Shown here in pieces: positions 2,291 through 58,179 of a stretch of DNA of 64,000 nt. Origin of the DNA: an uncultured Chloroflexia bacterium (GTDB lineage: Bacteria > Chloroflexota > Limnocylindria > Limnocylindrales > CSP1-4); contig CAVQCV010000003.1 of the NCBI GenBank assembly GCA_963711105.1, positions 39,051-103,050 of the forward strand. The letters run 5' to 3'. Position 1 is the first letter of the stretch. Each line of letters begins with the position of its first letter. Below the pieces are notes generated by a model. That model did no database searches. It was not told where the DNA came from and worked only from the letters and a program-made list of their open reading frames with translations. The translations under genes and the position numbers were made by a program.

Positions 2291-2575
2291 TCAGAAGTGC
2301 CGATGCAGCTGGTCGGCGTCCTCCGTGTCCCCGGGCGCGTCAGACATGCGGGGCGGCTCCTCCCAGCCCATCTGCTCCGCCTCGCGTTTGGCGAGGTTCA
2401 GGTGGACCACGTGGTGCTCGACGTTGGCGATTGCCGATGCGGGTACGTAGAGGGGGGTGGCGAGCATGCCTCTCGACGCGAGCACGTAGTTCTGGCCCAC
2501 CGAGTGCACGGAACCGACGCGGTGCCCGTCGTTCCCGACGATTTCCCAACCGGCCTTCAGGTCCGTCATGCGCAT
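2291..2575 (-). CDS. DUF2171-like small protein
   Basis: Motif LKAGWEIVGNDGHRVGSVHSVGQNYVLAS...VVHLNLAKREAEQMGWEEP matches my recollection of the DUF2171 consensus (IkeGmeVvgsDGehvG...yivL...VhL). Start is placed at the ATG at 2575 (MRMTDLK), with AGAGG about 11 nt upstream. The upstream part of the track ORF is probably not translated. Confidence 0.55.
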   Translation of the reverse strand: MRMTDLKAGWEIVGNDGHRVGSVHSVGQNYVLASRGMLATPLYVPASAIANVEHHVVHLNLAKREAEQMGWEEPPRMSDAPGDTEDADQLHRHF

Positions 2576-2707
2576 CGGCGATTGACCTCTGTCTTTCTCA
2601 ATATCGTCCACTCTAGTTGAGTTGACGCCGGTTCGTAGCCGAAACGCGAGCGGGGAGGCGGTTTCGCTCGCGGAATCCGGGCCAAGCACGCTTCCTCGTT
2701 GGGCCGG

Positions 2708-3427
2708 TCAGCCCCCGGTTTGGACCCCGATGATGCTGCCGACGGCAAACGTGACCGCAGCCGCGGCTCCGCCGAGCAGGACCTGCCGAGCGCTCGAGAA
2801 CAGCGCCGGTTTGTGGGTCAGGCGACTGATGCCGAAGCCGAGCAGGGCGAGCGCCGCCAGGCTCAAGCCGAGACTCGTCCCAAAGGCCCCGCCGCCGGTG
2901 AGCAGCACGTACGGGATGAGCGGCACGAGCGCGCCGATCGTGAACGCCACGAACGAGCTTCCCGCCGCCGCCGCGGGCGATCCGATCGACCGGGCGTCGA
3001 GCCCGACCTCCTCGAATATGAGCAACGTCGCCGCGTGCTCCGGATCGGAGAAAACTCGGTCCACGAAGTGGCTCGCCTCTTCCGCCGTGAACCCGCGCTG
3101 CTGATATACCCGAGCGAGGATCGCGCGTTCCTGATCCGGCGTGTCGCGGATCTGCGACCGTTCGAACGCGAGCTGGTGGTCCAGGAGTTCGCGCTGCGAT
3201 CGGACGGAGATGTACTCGCCGACAGCCATTGAGAACGCGCCCGCCAGGAGCCCGGCCACGCCCGCGAGAACGATCACCCCGGCCGCGGGATTCGCGCCGG
3301 CCACGCCCATCACCAGGGCCAGATTGCTGACCAGCCCGTCATTGGCCCCGAAGACAACCGGACGAAGCACGGCGTTGGCCTGCGTCTCGTGCGGGGAGGG
3401 CTCCTTGGCGGGGATCTGCCTCAACAA
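2708..3427 (-). CDS. VIT1/CCC1 family iron/manganese transporter
   Basis: Signature VFGANDGLVSNLALVMGVAG and about five TM segments. The real start is likely a TTG or GTG inside the track ORF near 3427 (candidate TTG at LLRQIP, GTG at AVLRP), which would give about 239 aa. Confidence 0.7.
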   Translation of the reverse strand: MLRQIPAKEPSPHETQANAVLRPVVFGANDGLVSNLALVMGVAGANPAAGVIVLAGVAGLLAGAFSMAVGEYISVRSQRELLDHQLAFERSQIRDTPDQERAILARVYQQRGFTAEEASHFVDRVFSDPEHAATLLIFEEVGLDARSIGSPAAAAGSSFVAFTIGALVPLIPYVLLTGGGAFGTSLGLSLAALALLGFGISRLTHKPALFSSARQVLLGGAAAAVTFAVGSIIGVQTGG

Positions 3428-3633
3428 GGGAACGCGATTCCAGAATCCGGGGGTCCTCAATTGGCTGCTCCGGCGATGTGGGTCTGACGAGTTTACCGAA
3501 GACGCCGTTTGCCCGGTTGCCCGACCGCCGGACGTCTCCGCCGCCTCACGTTGGGAGTAGCATCGGCCCAGACGTCCGGGCATCCGGCCGCGGACCGACC
3601 GCGCCGGCCCGGCCCCATTGAGCGGAGGAAACG

Positions 3634-4734
3634 ATGCCCGCCCTGGACCTCCGTCATCCCCGTGCGATCACGATGTGGGACATCTCCTGGCTTCTGCGGC
3701 GCTGGCCCGGCGCGGGTTACGAGGACTGGGACAAGGCCCTCGACGAGCTGATGGAGCGGGGCTACGACGCAGTCCGGCTCGAGGCCTTCCCGCATATGCT
3801 GGCCGTCGATCCGGACGCCGAATGGGAGTTCCTGCCGGGCGCCGATTGCCACGACTGGGCTGCGCCTCTGCCGGTCACAGCCAGACCGTGGCCCGCGCTC
3901 GCGGACTTCACGCGCCGCTGCCGCGACCGGGGCATCGCCGTCGGGCTCTCGACGTGGTTCCCTCCGGACGCCACGGAGGCTCGCCTGCGGATCTCATCAC
4001 CCCAGGATCACGCGGCCGTCTGGGCGCGCACGCTCGATCTGTTCGAGGCCGAAGGCCTGCTGGACGCCTTGCTCTACGTGGACCTGTGCAACGAATGGCC
4101 GCACTCCGCCTGGGCCCCCTTCTTCAAGGACCAGCCCGCCGGCGCCCAGCACGAGGACTGGAGCACCGAGCCGGCCATGGCCTGGATGCGCGCCACTATC
4201 GAGGCCTTCCGCCCGCATTCCCGAGGCCTGCCGATCACCTTCTCGGTCTTGCCGATGCGGGGCTGGGCGCGCCGGGATCTCGGGTTCATGGATTTCCTGG
4301 AGCCGCACATCTGGATGGTCCAGGCATCGGACTACTACGAGCGAATCGGCTACGACTACCCGACGCAGGGCCTGGGTGGCTACCGGATGCTGCAGCAGCA
4401 TGCCCGGCCCCTCTACGACGCCGAGCGCGACCACTGGCGGGCGGAACTGGTCCGGCTGATTCGTGAGACGGCCGAACTGTCGGTGGACCTCGACTGCCCG
4501 GTCGTGACGACCGAATGCTGGGCCCTGGTCGAGTGGCGGGACCTGCCCGGCCTGGACTGGGCTCTGATCAAGGACCTCTGCGAGCTGGGCGTCCGGACCG
4601 CGGTCGAGACCGGTCGCTGGGCGGCCATGGCGACGAGCAACTTCTGCGAGCCGCAGTTCGTGGGCATGTGGCGCGATGTCGCCTGGCACCGCGAACTGAC
4701 GACCCTGATCAAGTCGTCCGGTCAACCGGGCTGA
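3634..4734 (+). CDS. Cytoplasmic GH5-like (cellulase-like TIM-barrel) glycoside hydrolase
   Basis: LCNEWP (GH5 acid/base NEP-type motif) and VVTTECW (nucleophile xTEx motif). No signal peptide. Confidence 0.55.
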   Translation: MPALDLRHPRAITMWDISWLLRRWPGAGYEDWDKALDELMERGYDAVRLEAFPHMLAVDPDAEWEFLPGADCHDWAAPLPVTARPWPALADFTRRCRDRGIAVGLSTWFPPDATEARLRISSPQDHAAVWARTLDLFEAEGLLDALLYVDLCNEWPHSAWAPFFKDQPAGAQHEDWSTEPAMAWMRATIEAFRPHSRGLPITFSVLPMRGWARRDLGFMDFLEPHIWMVQASDYYERIGYDYPTQGLGGYRMLQQHARPLYDAERDHWRAELVRLIRETAELSVDLDCPVVTTECWALVEWRDLPGLDWALIKDLCELGVRTAVETGRWAAMATSNFCEPQFVGMWRDVAWHRELTTLIKSSGQPG

Positions 4735-51218: not shown

Positions 51219-53057
51219 CTAGTGCGGCGTCTGGCCGAGCAGGGTCAGGGCGGCCAGCAGCTGGCTGTCGCCCGACGAGTTCACGGTGGCGGCGGTCATC
51301 TTGTCGAGCTTGATCGGGTCTATCGGCTGGCCTCCGACCGGCAGCGCCACTGTCTGGTCCGGCTGGATGCCCACGCCGAAGATTCGGTGGCCCGAAGGCG
51401 TGAGCCAGTCCGCCACGCCGAGCAGGATGGCCGAACCGTCCGACAGAACGAACGGCTGGAGGACGGTGCCGGTGCCCACGGTGGTCTGGCCGACGATCTT
51501 GCCGCGCAGGTTGTCCTGCACCGCGCCGGCCACGATTTCAGCCGCGCTGGCGGTGTTGTGATCCACGAGGACGACCATGGGCAGGCTCGTGGCGGTCCAG
51601 GAGGTGTCAACGGTGATGCTGGTTCGCCGGCCCGAGGAGTTCTCCTCCTGGTAGATGGTGCCGGTGCTCAGGAATTCGCTGGCCACGTTGCGAGCTTCGC
51701 TGGCCAGCCCGCCCGGGTTGCCGCGCAGGTCCAGGACGATGCCGGTGGCGCCGGCTTTGGTAGCCCCGTCGATGGCTGTCTTGATCTGGTCGCCCGCGCC
51801 GTCGGCGAACTCGAACAGGGTGATGTCCGCCACTGTCGTGCCGGGCACCATGCCCCAGTCGACCAGCGGAGCCTTGATGGTCGCGCGCGTGACCGTTATG
51901 TCCACGGGCACGGTGGAGCCGGCATGGAGGATCGTCAGGGTAACCTGCGTTCCGGGCGTTCCTCGGACCTGGGCGGCCAGCTGGTCGAAGGTCTGGCCCG
52001 CGACCGATTTGCCGTTGACGGCGGTTATCTCGTCGCCGGTGAGAATGCCGGCCTGCTCCGCCGGCGACCCTGAGATCACCCGATCTATCACGAACGCGCC
52101 GCTGTCCGTGGTCAGGTAGACGCCGATGCCGGCGACGCTGCCGTTCAGCTGGCTGGTCATGTCGTTGAATTCCTGGGGCGTCAGGAAGCGGGTGTGGTTT
52201 GTGTCGCCGAGCGCGTCCACCATTCCCCGGATCGAGCCGTAGAGCAGCTGCTGGTCGGTAATCGACGCGCGGCCGACGTACTGGGACTTGATGTCCCGAA
52301 GCGCTTCTTCGTACACCGAGAAGCCCTGGAGCGGGCCGGAGGTCTGCGTTTGCGGCTGCGCGCTCACGACGACGGATCGATCCACGACCATGCCCAACGA
52401 GAACGCGATCAGGGCGGCGACGACGACGCCGGCGATGGCGGGCAGGCGACTCCTGCGGCGCCCGGACGGCTCGGGATACAGGTTCGAGAGCGACTGCCAG
52501 GGCTGCGGCCCGGGCGTCCAGCCGGACTGCTGGGCGGGCGGCCAGGAAGGTTGCTGGGCGGGCGGCCAGGAAGGTTGCGGGTTCTGGAAGCCGGGCTGCT
52601 GAGCGGGCGGCCAGGAAGGTGCGGGACCGGCGCCGGGGGGCGTGCCCCAGCCGGACTGCTGAGCGGGCGGCCAGGAAGGCTGCGGGCTCTGGAAGCCGGG
52701 CTGCTGAGCGGGCGGCCAGGAAGGGGCGGGACCGGGGCCGGAGGGCGTGCCCCAGCCGGGCTGCTGAGCAGGTGGCCAGTAGGGGTTCTGCGGATTCTGG
52801 AAGCCGGGGCCGGTGGGCGCCTGCCAGCCCGACTGCTGCCCGGACGGCCAGAATGGATTGTCCGCCCCGGGCGCCGGTCCCCACGGCCGTGCGTCCGTCG
52901 CGTTCGGGTCGGCCGCCTGAGCGTTCGCCTCCGCATCCGAGCCCGAAGGCAGTGCCTGATCGCCGTCGGCCGGGCCTCCGGATGGCCCGTCCGCCGGATT
53001 CGGTTCGTTGTCGTCGATATTCACTGCCGCTCTCGCTTTCCTGGTTGGTACGCACAT
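51219..53057 (-). CDS. S41 family C-terminal processing peptidase with a PDZ domain and a cytoplasmic Pro/Gln-rich repeat N-terminus
   Basis: N-terminal about 190 aa of degenerate repeats (WPPAQQPGWGTPSGPGPAPS, WPPAQQPGFQSPQPS). TM LPAIAGVVVAALIAFSLGMVV. PDZ GDEITAVNGKSVAGQTF. Catalytic region GIVLDLRGNPGGL. The 688-aa ORF 51607..53673 is rejected. Confidence 0.75.
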   Translation of the reverse strand: MCVPTRKARAAVNIDDNEPNPADGPSGGPADGDQALPSGSDAEANAQAADPNATDARPWGPAPGADNPFWPSGQQSGWQAPTGPGFQNPQNPYWPPAQQPGWGTPSGPGPAPSWPPAQQPGFQSPQPSWPPAQQSGWGTPPGAGPAPSWPPAQQPGFQNPQPSWPPAQQPSWPPAQQSGWTPGPQPWQSLSNLYPEPSGRRRSRLPAIAGVVVAALIAFSLGMVVDRSVVVSAQPQTQTSGPLQGFSVYEEALRDIKSQYVGRASITDQQLLYGSIRGMVDALGDTNHTRFLTPQEFNDMTSQLNGSVAGIGVYLTTDSGAFVIDRVISGSPAEQAGILTGDEITAVNGKSVAGQTFDQLAAQVRGTPGTQVTLTILHAGSTVPVDITVTRATIKAPLVDWGMVPGTTVADITLFEFADGAGDQIKTAIDGATKAGATGIVLDLRGNPGGLASEARNVASEFLSTGTIYQEENSSGRRTSITVDTSWTATSLPMVVLVDHNTASAAEIVAGAVQDNLRGKIVGQTTVGTGTVLQPFVLSDGSAILLGVADWLTPSGHRIFGVGIQPDQTVALPVGGQPIDPIKLDKMTAATVNSSGDSQLLAALTLLGQTPH

Positions 53058-53188: not shown

Positions 53189-54037
53189 GTGATGGCGAAC
53201 GCGATCGACTCGACCGAATCGAACGGCAGACCCGGGAGCCGAACCCGCTCATGGGCCGGCGACGTGGCCCGGGTTCGCCCCACCGTCCTGATCCTCGGCG
53301 GCTTCCTGACCCTGCCGCCGCTGTACCGGGCCTTCGCCGCGCGGCTCCTTCGCCGGGGAGTGGCCGGAGTTGTCGTGGCGCCGGTCTGGACCCCGGACTG
53401 GCTCCTCGTCGCCGCCCGGGGCCCCGCCGCGGTCGCGACCCGCTCTGGCCGCGCCCTGCTCGCCGCCGGCGAGATGGCCGCGGAGCTGTCCGGAGGGGCG
53501 CCGGTGCTCGTCGTCGGCCACTCGGCCGGCGGCCTGGTGGCGCGCATCCTGACCGCCCCGGAGCCACTGCCGGGGAGGCGATTCGGGGCGGCGCCGCGCA
53601 TCGGGGCCATCGTGACGCTGGGCACGCCGCACGTGATGGCGCGCGGGGAGGGGATCGGGAAACGGCTCAACACGTCGATCGCGGGCGTGGCCGACGCCGC
53701 GGCGCCCGGGACGTGCCACTCCCCGTCGATCGGCTACGTGGCGGTGGCCTCCCGCGCGGTCCGCGGCGATCCGGCGGGCACCGGCCGCGAACGGGCCGCG
53801 TACGTGCTGTACCGCTCGGTCATCGGCCGCGCGGCGACGCCCGGGACGGAGGGCGATGGGCTCGTTCCGCTCGTTTCGGCGATGCTGCCGGGGGCGCGGG
53901 CGGTCGTCGTTGACGACGCCATCCACGGCCCCGGTGCGGGTGCGCCGTGGTACGGCACTGACTCGCCGATGGACGTCTGGTGGCCCGAGGCGGTGTCCGC
54001 CTGGCGAGAGGCGCTGAGGTTCCGCGCGGGAGGCTGA
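53189..54037 (+). CDS. Alpha/beta hydrolase (lipase/esterase-like)
   Basis: Nucleophile elbow VVGHSAGGLVARIL. Gly-rich oxyanion region ILGGFLTLPPLY. About 280 aa. Confidence 0.65.
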   Translation: MMANAIDSTESNGRPGSRTRSWAGDVARVRPTVLILGGFLTLPPLYRAFAARLLRRGVAGVVVAPVWTPDWLLVAARGPAAVATRSGRALLAAGEMAAELSGGAPVLVVGHSAGGLVARILTAPEPLPGRRFGAAPRIGAIVTLGTPHVMARGEGIGKRLNTSIAGVADAAAPGTCHSPSIGYVAVASRAVRGDPAGTGRERAAYVLYRSVIGRAATPGTEGDGLVPLVSAMLPGARAVVVDDAIHGPGAGAPWYGTDSPMDVWWPEAVSAWREALRFRAGG

Positions 54038-54152
54038 GCGCCGGAGTTCGGGCCACCTGCGCGCCCCCCAATTCGGCCCCGATTCGACCTCGGCCGCCCC
54101 AGGCTCGCCCCCGATTCGCCCCGCGCCCGGCTCCGCCGCCAAGGGCGCCGGT

Positions 54153-54181
54153 TTGACTGGATGGGGTTGCACGGCTACTCT
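54153..54181 (+). promoter_or_regulatory. Sigma-70-type promoter for tRNA-fMet
   Basis: TTGACT (54153-54158), 17-nt spacer, TACTCT (54176-54181). The mature tRNA 5' end is 6 nt downstream. Confidence 0.55.
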
Positions 54182-54186
54182 TCGCG

Positions 54187-54261
54187 GGCGGGGTGGAGCA
54201 GCGGCAGCTCGTCGGGCTCATAACCCGAAGGTCGGCGGTTCGAATCCGTCCCCCGCAACCA
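54187..54261 (+). tRNA. Initiator tRNA-fMet (anticodon CAU)
   Basis: Near-identical to E. coli tRNA-fMet through the anticodon arm. Anticodon stem UCGGG/CCCGA has the three G-C pairs diagnostic of initiators. Loop CUCAUAA. Mismatched 1:72 pair (G1/A72). T-arm GGCGG-UUCGAAU-CCGUC. CCA encoded. Confidence 0.85.
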
Positions 54262-54274
54262 ACGCCGAAACCTG

Positions 54275-54299
54275 AAGCCCGGCCATCTCGGCCGGGTTT
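54275..54299 (+). terminator. Terminator hairpin after tRNA-fMet, followed by the shared 15-mer TGATGTACGCCCGGC
   Basis: aagcccggcc-atct-cggccgggttt, then c gTGATGTACGCCCGGC (54302-54316). The same hairpin-plus-15-mer arrangement recurs at 59502-59544. Confidence 0.5.
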
Positions 54300-54782
54300 C
54301 GTGATGTACGCCCGGCATGGGCGGCAGCCCGGAGGTGAAAGTCCTCTGCAGGAGGCGGTGGTGCCAACTGCTAGCCAAAGGCAACGGCGCCACGGTGAGG
54401 TGGGGTCGGAAGGAAGCCCGAGGCGAAGCTCTGACCCGAGGAACACGAACCGCATACAAGGCCTGGCAGCCTGGATGAGCCGGCATCACACGGTGAAGTC
54501 CGTCACCACCAAGGGGCTGTCAGGTAAATGCGGCGGGGCTAGAGCGAAGGCGGCCGTTCTTATCCGGGGAGACCTGATCGGGTGTTGGATTCGTCCGACC
54601 GTCGCCCCCGCGAGGTGGCGCCGGACCGGTCAGGAGTCAGCAGCGGCCATAGTACCGGCGGGGATCGATGACGCCGAGAAGGGCCAAACGTCAGTCCGAG
54701 GGTCGAACCGGACGGACTCGCGATCGGCGCATCGACCGCAGCCACTCCATCCCTGCGATGGACCTGCCGTTGAGGCGAGAGG

Positions 54783-56180
54783 GTGAAGCCCTCAGACGCA
54801 GCGGCAGAGCGCAGCGCCGACCCGGCGTCTCCCGAATCCAGCCCTCACCCCGCCCGAGCAGATGATCTCTGGGAGGTCTTCCTCTCGCGAGAGAACCTGG
54901 CCCGGGCGTTGCGGCGCGTCGAGGCCAATCGCGGCGCTCCGGGTCCCGACGGCATGAGCACGGCTGAGCTTCGGCCGTATCTCAAGACCGCCTGGCCCAG
55001 TCTCCGCGAATCACTCGACGCTGGCACATACCGACCCAGCCCAGCCAGACGGGTGACGATCCCCAAGCCCGGTGGCGGTGAGCGTGAGTTAGGCGTGCCG
55101 ACGGTGATCGACCGCTTTCTCCAGCAAGCGTTGAGCCAGGTTCTCTCTCCGGTCTTCGAACCAACGTTCTCGGATCGAAGCTTCGGCTTCCGACCCGGAC
55201 GGAGCGCTCACCAGGCGGTGGAAGCCGCACGGCGGGCAATCGAGGCCGGGCAGGGCTGGGTCGTCGATGTCGATCTGGACCGGTTCTTCGACCGGGTCCA
55301 GCATGATGCCCTCATGGCCCGCGTGGCCAGAAGGGTCGGCGACCGACGGATCTTGAAGCTGATCCGCCGTTACCTCGACGCAGATGTCATGGTCGGCGGC
55401 GTGAAGGTCGCGACAGAAGAGGGCACCCCGCAAGGGTCTCCGCTCTCACCGCTGCTCGCGAACGTCATGCTCGACGATCTCGATCACGAGCTGGAAAGAC
55501 GGGGCCATGCCTTCGTCCGTTATGCCGACGACCTCCGGGTCTACGTGGCAAGCGAGCGAGCGGCTCAACGGGTGCTCGAAGGCATCACGGTCTTCGTGGA
55601 GCGGCGGCTCCATCTCAAAGTGAACCCGGCCAAGAGTGGCGTATCCCCGGCGACCGTCCGGGGTCTGCTCGGCTTCGGCTTCTTTGGGCGCGACGGGCGG
55701 ATCAGAGTCAGGCTCGGACCAAAGACGAAGACTCGTCTGCGGGCCCGATTACGCGAACTCACCGACCGCCACCGCTCGATTGCCATGCCGATCAGGATCG
55801 CGCAGCTCAACCGGTTCATCGCAGGCTGGACCGCCTACTTCGCCCTGGCCGAGACGCCCTCGGTGTTCGAGGAGTTCGACGAGTGGCTCCGTCGCAGATT
55901 GCGGCAGGTGCGCTGGAAGGAGTGGAAGACTTGTGGCGCCAAGCGCCGCAACCTGCGATCGCTCGGCATCCCTGACGATCTGGCTCGCCAGTGGGCGGCC
56001 AGCCGGAAGGGCTACTGGCGGCTGGCGGCCTCCCCTCCGCTCAGTTGGGCCATGCCGATCAGCTACTGGACCGACCTTGGTCTTCTGCCGATCGGTGTTC
56101 GTGTCCGTCGTCTCCGGGAGCACTGGCGAACCGCCGGATGCGGACCCGCATGTCCGGTGGTGTGGGAGGGGCCGGGTTGA
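54783..56180 (+). CDS. Group II intron-type reverse transcriptase/maturase (RT domains 0-7 plus X/maturase, no En/HNH domain)
   Basis: IPKPGGGERELGVPTVIDRFLQQA, FGFRPGRSAHQAV, WVVDVDLDRFFDRVQHDALM, GTPQGSPLSPLLANVMLDDLD, FVRYADDLRVY (YADD), maturase RFIAGWTAYF...WLRRRLRQVRWKEWK. GTG start in the track; the true start is uncertain. Confidence 0.85.
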   Translation: MKPSDAAAERSADPASPESSPHPARADDLWEVFLSRENLARALRRVEANRGAPGPDGMSTAELRPYLKTAWPSLRESLDAGTYRPSPARRVTIPKPGGGERELGVPTVIDRFLQQALSQVLSPVFEPTFSDRSFGFRPGRSAHQAVEAARRAIEAGQGWVVDVDLDRFFDRVQHDALMARVARRVGDRRILKLIRRYLDADVMVGGVKVATEEGTPQGSPLSPLLANVMLDDLDHELERRGHAFVRYADDLRVYVASERAAQRVLEGITVFVERRLHLKVNPAKSGVSPATVRGLLGFGFFGRDGRIRVRLGPKTKTRLRARLRELTDRHRSIAMPIRIAQLNRFIAGWTAYFALAETPSVFEEFDEWLRRRLRQVRWKEWKTCGAKRRNLRSLGIPDDLARQWAASRKGYWRLAASPPLSWAMPISYWTDLGLLPIGVRVRRLREHWRTAGCGPACPVVWEGPG

Positions 56181-56217
56181 CCTCGGCCCCTACCCGATTC
56201 CCGCCGGCGCGCATACC

Positions 56218-57063
56218 ATGGGCGGCATGACGCCCTTCGACAGGACCGCCCTCGCGGAAGCACTGTTGAAGGGGCGCGACCCCGAGGCGATGGACGGCAA
56301 AGCGTACTGCCACGCCTATCGCAAGTGGCAGGGGCCGCACTGGACACTGGTGGGGCTGGCGACGATCGGCTACCCGGCTGGAGACGTATCGCTCCGGTCG
56401 CTCATGGCGAGCGTCGAGGAGTGGCTATTCCACCGGCAGCACATGAACCCTCCCGGCACCACCACGATCCCGGGCCAGGATGATCGGGTGCGGCGCTGCG
56501 CCTCCCAGGAAGGCAACGCCATCTGGTACGCGATCGTGCTGGGGCTGGAGACCGAACGAACAGTCCGGCTGGTCGATCGGCTGATCGGCTGCCAGTGGCC
56601 CGACGGCGGCTGGAACTGCGACCGCCGCCCGGGCGCCCGGACGTCGTCGTTCCAGGAGACGGCCATCCCGGCTCGAGGCCTGTGGGCCTACGGGCAACGC
56701 CACGGTTATGACCCGGCCCTGAAGGCTGCCGATCGAGCCGCCGAACTGCTCCTGTCGCGCCGCCTGCTCTGGCGCCGGACGGATGGGTCTCTCGTTGCGC
56801 CGGACTGGGGCGGGCCGTTCGATCTGATCCACTTCCCGATCCAGTTCTACGACGTTCTGTTCTCGCTCCAGGTCATGGCCGAGATGGGGCGGATCCACGA
56901 TCCCCGCTGCCGGGACGCCCTCGCGCTCCTGGAGTCGAAACGGCTCCGAGACGGCGGCTTCCCGCTCGAGTACCGCAATGCCACCACGTCGGATCGGGTC
57001 GCCAGCCGCGGAACCTACGCCGACTGGGGAGCCGGCGGCAGGAGTACGGCAATCCCCTGGTGA
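56218..57063 (+). CDS. Alpha/alpha-toroid protein with prenyltransferase/squalene-cyclase-type QW repeats
   Basis: RLIGCQWPDGGWN and LESKRLRDGGFP fit the [KR]..L...Q..DGG[WF] QW motif. The rest is aromatic-rich and protein-like. The ATG at 56218 is in frame with a longer track ORF. Confidence 0.5.
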   Translation: MGGMTPFDRTALAEALLKGRDPEAMDGKAYCHAYRKWQGPHWTLVGLATIGYPAGDVSLRSLMASVEEWLFHRQHMNPPGTTTIPGQDDRVRRCASQEGNAIWYAIVLGLETERTVRLVDRLIGCQWPDGGWNCDRRPGARTSSFQETAIPARGLWAYGQRHGYDPALKAADRAAELLLSRRLLWRRTDGSLVAPDWGGPFDLIHFPIQFYDVLFSLQVMAEMGRIHDPRCRDALALLESKRLRDGGFPLEYRNATTSDRVASRGTYADWGAGGRSTAIPW

Positions 57064-58179
57064 CGGAGTTCGCGGAGGAGGTCCTGTCCGCCGCCAGGGC
57101 GGCCAGACCGTAGGGTGTCTCGATCCCAGGAGGGGTGCCGGGCCGCTACTCCGCCTGGCTCGAGCGCAGGACGGCGCGGTGAAGGGCACGCGGACATCGT
57201 GAAACACTTCCGCCGAAATCAGGAATCCGGCGAAGAGGAACATCACGCCCAGCAGCTCGCCGACGAAGAACGGGCTGGTGTCGCCGAAGCGATTGAGGCC
57301 GCTCGTCATGGCCGGGACGAAGGCGCCGACGGCGATCAGCAGCGTGGCCGGGACACGGCTGTTCAGGCGACCGGTGACGAGGGCGCCCGCGGCGCCCGGC
57401 AGTGAGGCCGCCAGGTTAATCGCGATCGCGACGGGGGCGATCGCGAGGTTTCGGGCGTAGGCGGTCCGCGAACCGTCTCGATCCAGCGTGTACCGGATGA
57501 CGCGCCGCTTCGGCATGAAGATGTATGCGCTGTAGAGCCCGCCCAGAACCAGCGCGAAGGCGCCGCTTATGTTGAACAGAGGGGCGAGCAGGCGAAGGTA
57601 GCCGGGCATCAGGTCGCCCGTGGGGATGCCGGTGGCCGGATCGACGGCCCAGCCGGGTGACGGGATGGTCGCGAAGGCCATGAGTACGACCGAAGCGACG
57701 GTCCCGGCGACCACGGCTCCGGCGGCCAACCGGGGCCAATGCGAGCCGCCACGATACGTGTCCAGGGCAATGAGGGCGGCGACATGGGCGGCCACGATGA
57801 AGTAGACGGTGGCCGAGATCCCGGCGTCCGGATAGTCGTACTTCTTCTCGGCAAGCGAGGTGAACAGGCCGGCCAGGAAGAGCGAAACGGCGTAGGCATA
57901 GCCGAAGCGGGTACGGCTCATCAGCAAGACCGTCCCCAGGCCGAGCCAGCCGGCCACCCAGATGGCGCCGATCAGATACCAGGCTCGATACAACGGCTCA
58001 GACCAGCCGAACGCCCCGCCCAGGAACTCCGTGCCGGCCGCAAGGCCGTACCAGAGCATGCCCAGCGTCCACACCGCCTGGTAGGAGCGGCGTCTCGCCC
58101 GCCACTGGCCGAAGAGCATCGCGGCCATGGTCAGGCTGACGACCGACGAGCACAGCGGGAGTACGACGTTGAGGTTCAA
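56425..58179 (-). CDS. Integral membrane protein (8-10 TM). The ORF runs 640 bp past the plausible C-terminus, antisense through the previous gene
   Basis: The first approximately 345 aa (58179 to about 57145) are convincing TM protein (MNLNVVLPLCSSVVSLTMAAMLFGQW...). The remaining approximately 240 aa are Arg/Pro/Gly-rich and antisense to 56218..57063. No in-frame stop occurs until 56425. Confidence 0.5.
   Translation of the reverse strand: MNLNVVLPLCSSVVSLTMAAMLFGQWRARRRSYQAVWTLGMLWYGLAAGTEFLGGAFGWSEPLYRAWYLIGAIWVAGWLGLGTVLLMSRTRFGYAYAVSLFLAGLFTSLAEKKYDYPDAGISATVYFIVAAHVAALIALDTYRGGSHWPRLAAGAVVAGTVASVVLMAFATIPSPGWAVDPATGIPTGDLMPGYLRLLAPLFNISGAFALVLGGLYSAYIFMPKRRVIRYTLDRDGSRTAYARNLAIAPVAIAINLAASLPGAAGALVTGRLNSRVPATLLIAVGAFVPAMTSGLNRFGDTSPFFVGELLGVMFLFAGFLISAEVFHDVRVPFTAPSCARARRSSGPAPLLGSRHPTVWPPWRRTGPPPRTPSPGDCRTPAAGSPVGVGSAAGDPIRRGGIAVLEREAAVSEPFRLQEREGVPAAGIVDPPHLGHDLEREQNVVELDREVDQIERPAPVRRNERPIRPAPEQAARQEQFGGSIGSLQGRVITVALPVGPQASSRDGRLLERRRPGARAAVAVPAAVGPLAADQPIDQPDCSFGLQPQHDRVPDGVAFLGGAAPHPIILARDRGGAGRVHVLPVE

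Follow-up and report, generated by a model that had tools for sequence, protein, structure and literature searches.

Group II introns of bacterial class C (IIC) are recognised by a set of RNA features described with B.h.I1 of Bacillus halodurans (PMC1702495): a domain V with a distal stem 2 bp shorter than in IIA and IIB introns, a CGC instead of the AGC triad, an epsilon′ bulge with a conserved AGGAA, a pairing of only 3–4 bp between intron-binding site 1 and exon-binding site 1 (IBS1-EBS1), absence of EBS2 and, at the position of IBS2, a terminator stem-loop or inverted repeat located 3–11 nt from the splice site. GsI-IIC of Geobacillus stearothermophilus is described in the reference list of 10.1101/2024.12.23.630110 as a proliferative IIC intron with targets behind terminators. 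The IIC-attC introns of integrons recognise a DNA stem-loop together with a short IBS1, insert into attC sites and carry outward-facing promoters which drive downstream cassettes (PMC3001079). We examined here a 64-kb window (64,000 nt of contig CAVQCV010000003.1 from an uncultured Chloroflexia bacterium), in which a reverse transcriptase (RT) gene is found behind an initiator tRNA gene. The segment 54306-56198 of the plus strand (1893 nt; all coordinates are those of the window unless a locus is named) is almost certainly an intact, and probably still mobile, IIC intron, which combines what its sequence predicts to be a self-splicing-type ribozyme (domains I–VI) with an RT/maturase gene in domain IV. 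It is an ordinary terminator-seeking selfish retroelement, a member of a well-known class and not a new system.

An RT-based scan using one genome per species confirmed no fewer than 528 relatives; loci fetched for comparison (designated L001 and so on) numbered 79. The boundaries of the element were mapped by BLAST of the window copy with 200-nt flanks against these loci. For dozens of them homology began at query position 200–201 (= 54306) and ended at about 2093–2094 (= 56198), and loci sharing both breakpoints had flanks unrelated to those of the window and to one another. The junction table of all loci displayed the same arrangement: a GC-rich hairpin, a few nt, a 5′ end of the type GU(A/G)(C/U)GCC... 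and a 3′ end ...CCUACCCGAU. In the window the intron reads 5′ GUACG ... CCUACCCGAU 3′, and its terminal AU fits the AY boundary consensus. Among 32 distinct related junctions the 5′ end, always in the same register, was GUACG in 17, GUGCG in 10 and GUGUG in 5. The GUGYG ... AY consensus is that of ‘the vast majority’ and not a strict requirement (PMC4424553). Since GUACG is the commonest 5′ end and occurs at different sites, it can be regarded as a lineage trait compatible with spread, hence as a variant of the consensus proper to this lineage. The boundary is secure in spite of this deviation, since the homology breakpoints set both ends independently. A first-pass annotation, made from the letters of the window and their open reading frames (ORFs), had reported no intron boundaries and no GUGYG 5′ end. 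Its second statement is literally correct, but a 5′ end does exist, at 54306; it was overlooked because GUGYG had been searched and GUACG is a one-base variant. Splicing is predicted to join position 54305 to 56199 (..GGGUUUCGUGAU|UCCCGCCGGCGCG..), the ligated exon junction becoming ..UUUCGUGAU|UCCCGCC...

We then looked for the ribozyme. An Rfam scan of the whole window at gathering thresholds returned three group II matches, all on the plus strand and in the correct order. The domain I core (54389-54558) matched the full RF02001 model (group-II-D1D4-3, positions 1–170) with 134.7 bits (E 1.3e-27), and domain II, J2/3 and domain III (54599-54684) matched the full RF01998 model (group-II-D1D4-1) with 52.7 bits for a gathering threshold of 35. 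Domains V–VI (56129-56198) matched RF00029 with 44.1 bits for a gathering score of 40. This last search had been proposed by the first-pass annotation, which had itself found no domain V. Domain V is 30 nt long (56131-56160, plus strand) and its sequence occurs only once in the window. Its triad is CGC (56132-56134), its bulge measures 2 nt and its distal stem has 3 bp; a 4-nt deletion relative to the RF00029 model is located in this distal stem/loop. Domain VI (56163-56196, plus strand) exposes a bulged branch-point candidate, A56192, 7 nt from the intron's 3′ end, according to the RNAalifold consensus. The domain I core contains the epsilon′ bulge with AGGAA, the EBS1 hairpin and a GUAAAU stretch with the EBS3 candidate described below. 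AGGAA is at 54411-54415, within GAAGGAAG (54409-54416); UCGGAAGGAAG, which holds it, corresponds to an unpaired stretch of the RF02001 alignment and reads GA(A/G)GGAA in the relatives.

Five of the IIC features listed in PMC1702495 were seen directly in the window copy, and the class of the RNA is IIC. As in B.h.I1, we found a domain V that is shortened and has the CGC triad, an epsilon′ bulge containing AGGAA, a short pairing between IBS1 and EBS1 and a terminator-like stem-loop at 3–11 nt upstream of the splice site, in an intergenic element known in multiple copies with different flanks; B.h.I1 is also devoid of IBS2 (PMC1702495), a character that the window intron probably shares. The two differ in that the potential IBS1-EBS1 pairing in the window is 5 bp and not 3–4 bp, and in that the U tract of the window hairpin is weak. 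The first-pass annotation had proposed an intron without endonuclease (En-minus), of any of classes C to F, inserted behind a terminator hairpin. This was correct with regard to class C. All four classes lack the endonuclease (PMC4424553). Classes D, E and F are nevertheless excluded because their ribozymes are of IIB type (PMC4424553, Table 1), whereas in the window element domain V has the CGC triad and the short distal stem specific to IIC, AGGAA is present in its bulge, a hairpin occupies the would-be IBS2 position and the RT aligns over its full length with that of a IIC intron (see below). A class D, E or F intron is thus extremely unlikely.

The structures of domains V and VI agree with the family consensus and are supported by the relatives: among 24 distinct sequences, both helices are kept via two-sided changes at five pairs. 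In domain V compensatory changes affect three pairs of the basal stem; in domain VI, pair 46–66 is GC in 10, CG in 10 and AU in 4 sequences, and both sides of pair 40–72 change. The RT ORF overlaps domains V–VI by its last 50 nt, its TGA stop (56178-56180) being situated in the loop of domain VI. It is because of this overlap, and because the 37 nt between the stop and the next ATG (56218), a distance correctly given at first, looked too short, that both domains had been overlooked. Read-through of the ORF into domain V/VI is common to most relatives, in which tblastn matches reach residue 465. The last ∼17 RT codons (56131-56180) therefore double as catalytic RNA, and ribosomes finishing the ORF would unfold the ribozyme core. 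A literature search on ORFs extending into domain V gave nothing specific.

The intron-encoded protein (IEP) is specified by 54783..56180 on the plus strand, in domain IV, and counts 465 aa from a GTG start, as annotated at first. Pfam recognised RVT_1 at residues 93–288 (1e-36) and GIIM at 318–393 (9e-19) and no other domain. The earlier description of an RT with YADD (..VRYADDLRVY..) and maturase domain but no endonuclease is hence confirmed, and the layout is RT, maturase (X/thumb) and a C-terminal DNA-binding region. The protein scored 386 bits with the TIGR04416 group_II_RT_mat equivalog (cut-off 300). Its best PDB match was 6ar1, the GsI-IIC RT (E 2.2e-145, 54% identity, query residues 30–446 against residues 4–419 of the chain). 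GsI-IIC RT thus aligns over its full length and has the same layout, again without endonuclease, but the window intron resides in a high-GC host, starts with GUACG and encodes ∼19 additional C-terminal residues, the latter because the ORF continues through domain V into the loop of domain VI. Among PDB entries the four highest scores went to 6ar1, 7uim, 5hhj and 5hhl (488, 339, 275 and 275 bits), the last three of which we take to be RTs of IIC introns as well. Scores were lower for LtrA (IIA; 119 bits), for a IIB maturase (111 bits) and for the RT of G2L4 (52.6 bits). Judged from this gap in score (275–488 bits for IIC against 111–119 bits for IIA and IIB) rather than from a tree, the RT appears to group with class C IEPs.

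Two further readings had been raised at first: a free-standing group II-like (G2L) RT, or a defence RT (retron, DRT/UG) accompanied by an upstream non-coding RNA. Structured RNA does occur upstream of RT genes in defence systems, and weak matches to retron and DRT models were indeed obtained here. However, all of these remained far below the family cut-offs (retron St85, 61.8 for a cut-off of 235; Drt2, 49.1 for 390; Drt3a, 39.4 for 200; Drt4, 30.5 for 450). Moreover, the supposed leader corresponds to group II domains I–III and domains V–VI follow the ORF, the element travels as one block of 1.9 kb whose ends are exact, and the best G2L structure, that of G2L4, ranks well behind the IIC proteins. 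Membership of the retron or DRT families was rejected on the unattained cut-offs and on the identity of the upstream RNA, and a free-standing G2L on the ribozyme domains flanking the ORF on both sides. Both possibilities are vanishingly improbable compared with a IIC intron. A degenerate or ORF-only intron, also suggested at first, does not fit either with a full ribozyme, exact ends and covarying exon pairings.

We next considered the insertion site. On the 5′ exon side lies the gene of an initiator tRNA-Met(CAT) (54187-54261, plus strand), detected by ARAGORN and by the Rfam tRNA model (59.4 bits). It has the initiator hallmarks in its sequence, namely an anticodon stem with three G:C pairs (GGG/CCC) at its base, and a G1·A72 mismatch. 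The structured interval between the tRNA end and the RT start measures 521 nt and holds only spurious high-GC ORFs, in line with the first-pass annotation. The hairpin that it had placed at 54275-54299 is real and folds as a GC-rich, terminator-like structure at 54273-54301 (plus strand), with a 12-bp stem and a 5-nt loop (−22.9 kcal/mol, z = −3.46). It ends 4 nt upstream of the insertion point, inside the reported 3–11 nt range, and in the junction table almost all related copies are preceded, at a distance of a few nt, by a comparable hairpin. This is the DNA/RNA stem-loop serving IIC introns instead of IBS2.

The 5′ exon ends with GUGAU (54301-54305), the 5 nt that constitute IBS1, and EBS1 is AUCAC at 54485-54489 (plus strand for both). 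According to the RF02001 structure line, EBS1 belongs to a domain I hairpin made of a 4-bp stem and an 8-nt loop (GCAUCACA), in which it is exposed, and IBS1 and EBS1 form 5/5 Watson–Crick pairs. Across the 32 junctions EBS1 and IBS1 covary: the mean run of pairs counted from the splice site was 3.1, against 0.89 (sd 0.20) when exons were shuffled among introns, and none of 10,000 permutations reached the observed value. The covariation persisted when a single representative was kept for each distinct loop (19 loops). For example, the Streptomyces blattellae copies have an EBS1 starting with ACG and every one of them is inserted after ..CGT, while locus L002 has the EBS1 of the window, a different hairpin and then the same CGUGAU; ..TGAT precedes this same EBS1 in both L002 and L080.

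On the 3′ side the junction table places IBS3 at U56199, the first nt of the 3′ exon, a position occupied in related copies by T in 38 and by C in 10. In the alignment of relatives A54527 (plus strand) would pair with this U. Among these interrelated copies the corresponding column was G in 10/10 copies with a 3′-exon C and, with a T, A in 63% and G in 37%, and it was never A opposite C. Owing to this relatedness, the covariation is only suggestive of A54527 as the EBS3 candidate. We also noted that the intron copy of L001 has an EBS1 AUUGC and a 5′ exon ..CUUAGUU with which it pairs poorly (run of 1). An exon ending one nt earlier (..UUAGU) would give 4 pairs, so that a 1-nt slip of the junction or an ectopic insertion could account for this case.

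Retroelement behaviour can be followed through copies at different sites and a site without the element. The closest loci are labelled as Chloroflexia/Chloroflexota metagenome-assembled genomes (MAGs), and several related genomes contain multiple copies. A second contig, L080, encodes an identical RT protein within an element that differs from that of the window by 1 mismatch in 1899 nt (99.95%). The contig stops 4 nt upstream of the intron 5′ end (TGAT), and its 3′ flank is unrelated to the window from 2 nt past the intron end (56198). Such a near-identical copy at another site points to recent movement.

A site without the intron was found in L001. This is a Chloroflexia MAG, and the RT of the intron copy that it does possess is the closest one (82% identity). 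Positions 98–212 of this locus carry the orthologous tRNA-fMet and hairpin with no intron behind them. Identity was 91.5% over a high-scoring segment pair starting upstream of the tRNA and reaching through the hairpin, and conservation of the two loci comes to within 3 nt of the place of insertion (L001, GGGUUUCGUCGU; window, GGGUUUCGUGAU). Further on, the L001 ORF 326–1336 is homologous to the gene downstream of the window intron (70% identity over 250 aa). The intron copy of L001 itself (2494–4419) lies 2.3 kb further on, behind another hairpin. The uninterrupted junction between tRNA-fMet and downstream gene that the first-pass annotation had advised to look for in related genomes therefore exists. 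That annotation had also held that canonical domains V–VI and exon junctions, once detected, would make this an ordinary intact intron; with both in hand, this is what the element is by its own standard. As an observation apart, the tRNA body is identical in the window and in L001 except for position 1: L001 has the usual bacterial C1 opposite A72 and the window has G1, with a 1:72 mismatch in both.

Several points weigh against an intact and mobile intron. The 5′ end departs from GUGYG by an A for G at intron position 3, and no epsilon-epsilon′ compensation for this A was detected in the alignment of relatives, where the epsilon′ bulge (GGGGU[C/G]GGAAGGAA) does not track GUACG versus GUGCG. 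EBS2 is only presumed to be lacking, to judge by the compactness of domain I (∼270 nt) and by the hairpin at the IBS2 position. The hairpin at 54273-54301 escaped a simple terminator scan, its stem being followed by no more than 3 U, and it is not a textbook intrinsic terminator. There is a single copy in the 64-kb window, and L080, a contig from a metagenome, cannot be assigned to the same genome. Finally, the L001 spacer differs from that of the window by ∼85 nt, so the empty site is nucleotide-precise on the 5′ side only. As a result of this difference, aligning the spliced junction of the window globally with L001 was of no help for the 3′ flank, and it is the 5′ side and the downstream protein that carry the empty-site argument.

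The first of these points would suit a fossil, i.e. a IIC intron of intact appearance but unable to splice or move, for instance because of its GUACG 5′ end and the missing epsilon′ change. We consider this very unlikely. GUACG is the prevailing 5′ end at related junctions (17/32) in different sites, the RT ORF is intact with its YADD, domains V and VI match the family consensus, IBS1-EBS1 pairs without mismatch and recent movement, as suggested by the L080 copy, argues against a fossil. The intron is therefore read as intact and, from its sequence and distribution, probably still mobile.

The anatomy, the pairings, the genomic context and the polymorphism in presence and position were read at the loci described above; the mechanism that we propose is drawn from published work on IIC introns (PMC1702495, PMC3898094, PMC4424553). 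Transcription reading through from the tRNA gene would carry the intron, and the RT/maturase would bind it and assist its splicing out. The resulting ribonucleoprotein would recognise a DNA stem-loop together with IBS1 (GUGAU) and IBS3 (U), through pairing with EBS1 (AUCAC) and EBS3, and would reverse-splice into this DNA. The RT would then copy the inserted RNA, presumably using as primer the nascent strand at a replication fork, as the protein is devoid of endonuclease. The cost for the host would be low, because of the position behind a terminator and outside coding sequence.

For annotation, this means that the 1.9-kb block should be described as a class IIC group II intron, and that labels such as stand-alone RT, defence system or unknown non-coding RNA should be avoided, as should any reading of the neighbouring genes as its functional partners. 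Two traps for boundary detection in high-GC genomes are illustrated: the 5′ end can be a GUACG variant, and an RT ORF running through domains V–VI hides the room for them. A modest practical point is that thermostable or high-GC IIC RTs are useful enzymes, and the family is abundant in Chloroflexota and Actinomycetota. The Chloroflexota/Actinomycetota sublineage to which the window intron belongs shares three traits: GUACG 5′ ends, extension of the ORF through domain V into the domain VI loop, and members that seem to home onto the 3′ ends of other copies.

The latter trait is suggested by some tandem arrangements. In L009 (2466–6362) two intron copies are separated by a single T, and L054, L057 and L075 have as their 5′ exon the terminal ...GGCGCCUACCCGAU of another intron. 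In L057, L074 and L075 the EBS1 is AUUGC, which pairs with CGAU, a sequence conserved at intron 3′ ends. On account of this pairing, domain VI and the 3′ tail seem to act as hairpin and IBS1 target, giving tandem arrays. Nothing specific on tandem IIC arrays was found in the literature, where a paper on tandem copies concerns a IIB1 intron.

The gene downstream of the intron (56218..57063, plus strand) codes for a QW-motif protein without any Pfam match. Its start is probably at 56227 rather than at 56218, as judged by homology with L001, where the ATG at 318 is out of frame and the real start is at 326; the N-terminus of the L001 homologue is ∼40 aa longer. In the window this gene begins 19–28 nt past the intron 3′ end, versus ∼108 nt between hairpin and homologous start in the intron-less L001 site. 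This difference in spacing raises the idea that the intron is not a neutral passenger and that downstream expression may depend on it. If so, expression could follow from read-through of the tRNA promoter and subsequent splicing, or from an outward-facing promoter inside the intron, as in IIC-attC introns. The window intron resembles the latter in its class and in its presumed recognition of a stem-loop and short IBS1, but its target is a hairpin behind a tRNA gene, outside any integron, and a scan of 54000-56400 revealed no sigma-70-like promoter. We consider such a role unlikely, and the same holds for the separate proposal that the sublineage could merit a named subclass.

The QW-motif protein and a membrane-protein ORF (56425-58179, minus strand) are bystanders, the former a host gene; the first-pass annotation had noted that these neighbours are not known partners of introns or of defence systems. 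The two ORFs are convergent and overlap by ∼640 nt, and the membrane-protein ORF likewise has no Pfam match. Its N-terminal ∼330 aa are membrane-protein-like, and its Arg/Pro/Gly-rich C-terminal part looks like non-coding high-GC read-through or the result of a frameshift. On the other side of the tRNA, the minus-strand ORF 51219-53057 (612 aa) has a Pro/Gln-rich N-terminal region with repeated units of the SWPPAQQ(P/S)G(F/W) type and a C-terminal part resembling a PDZ-containing C-terminal-processing protease.

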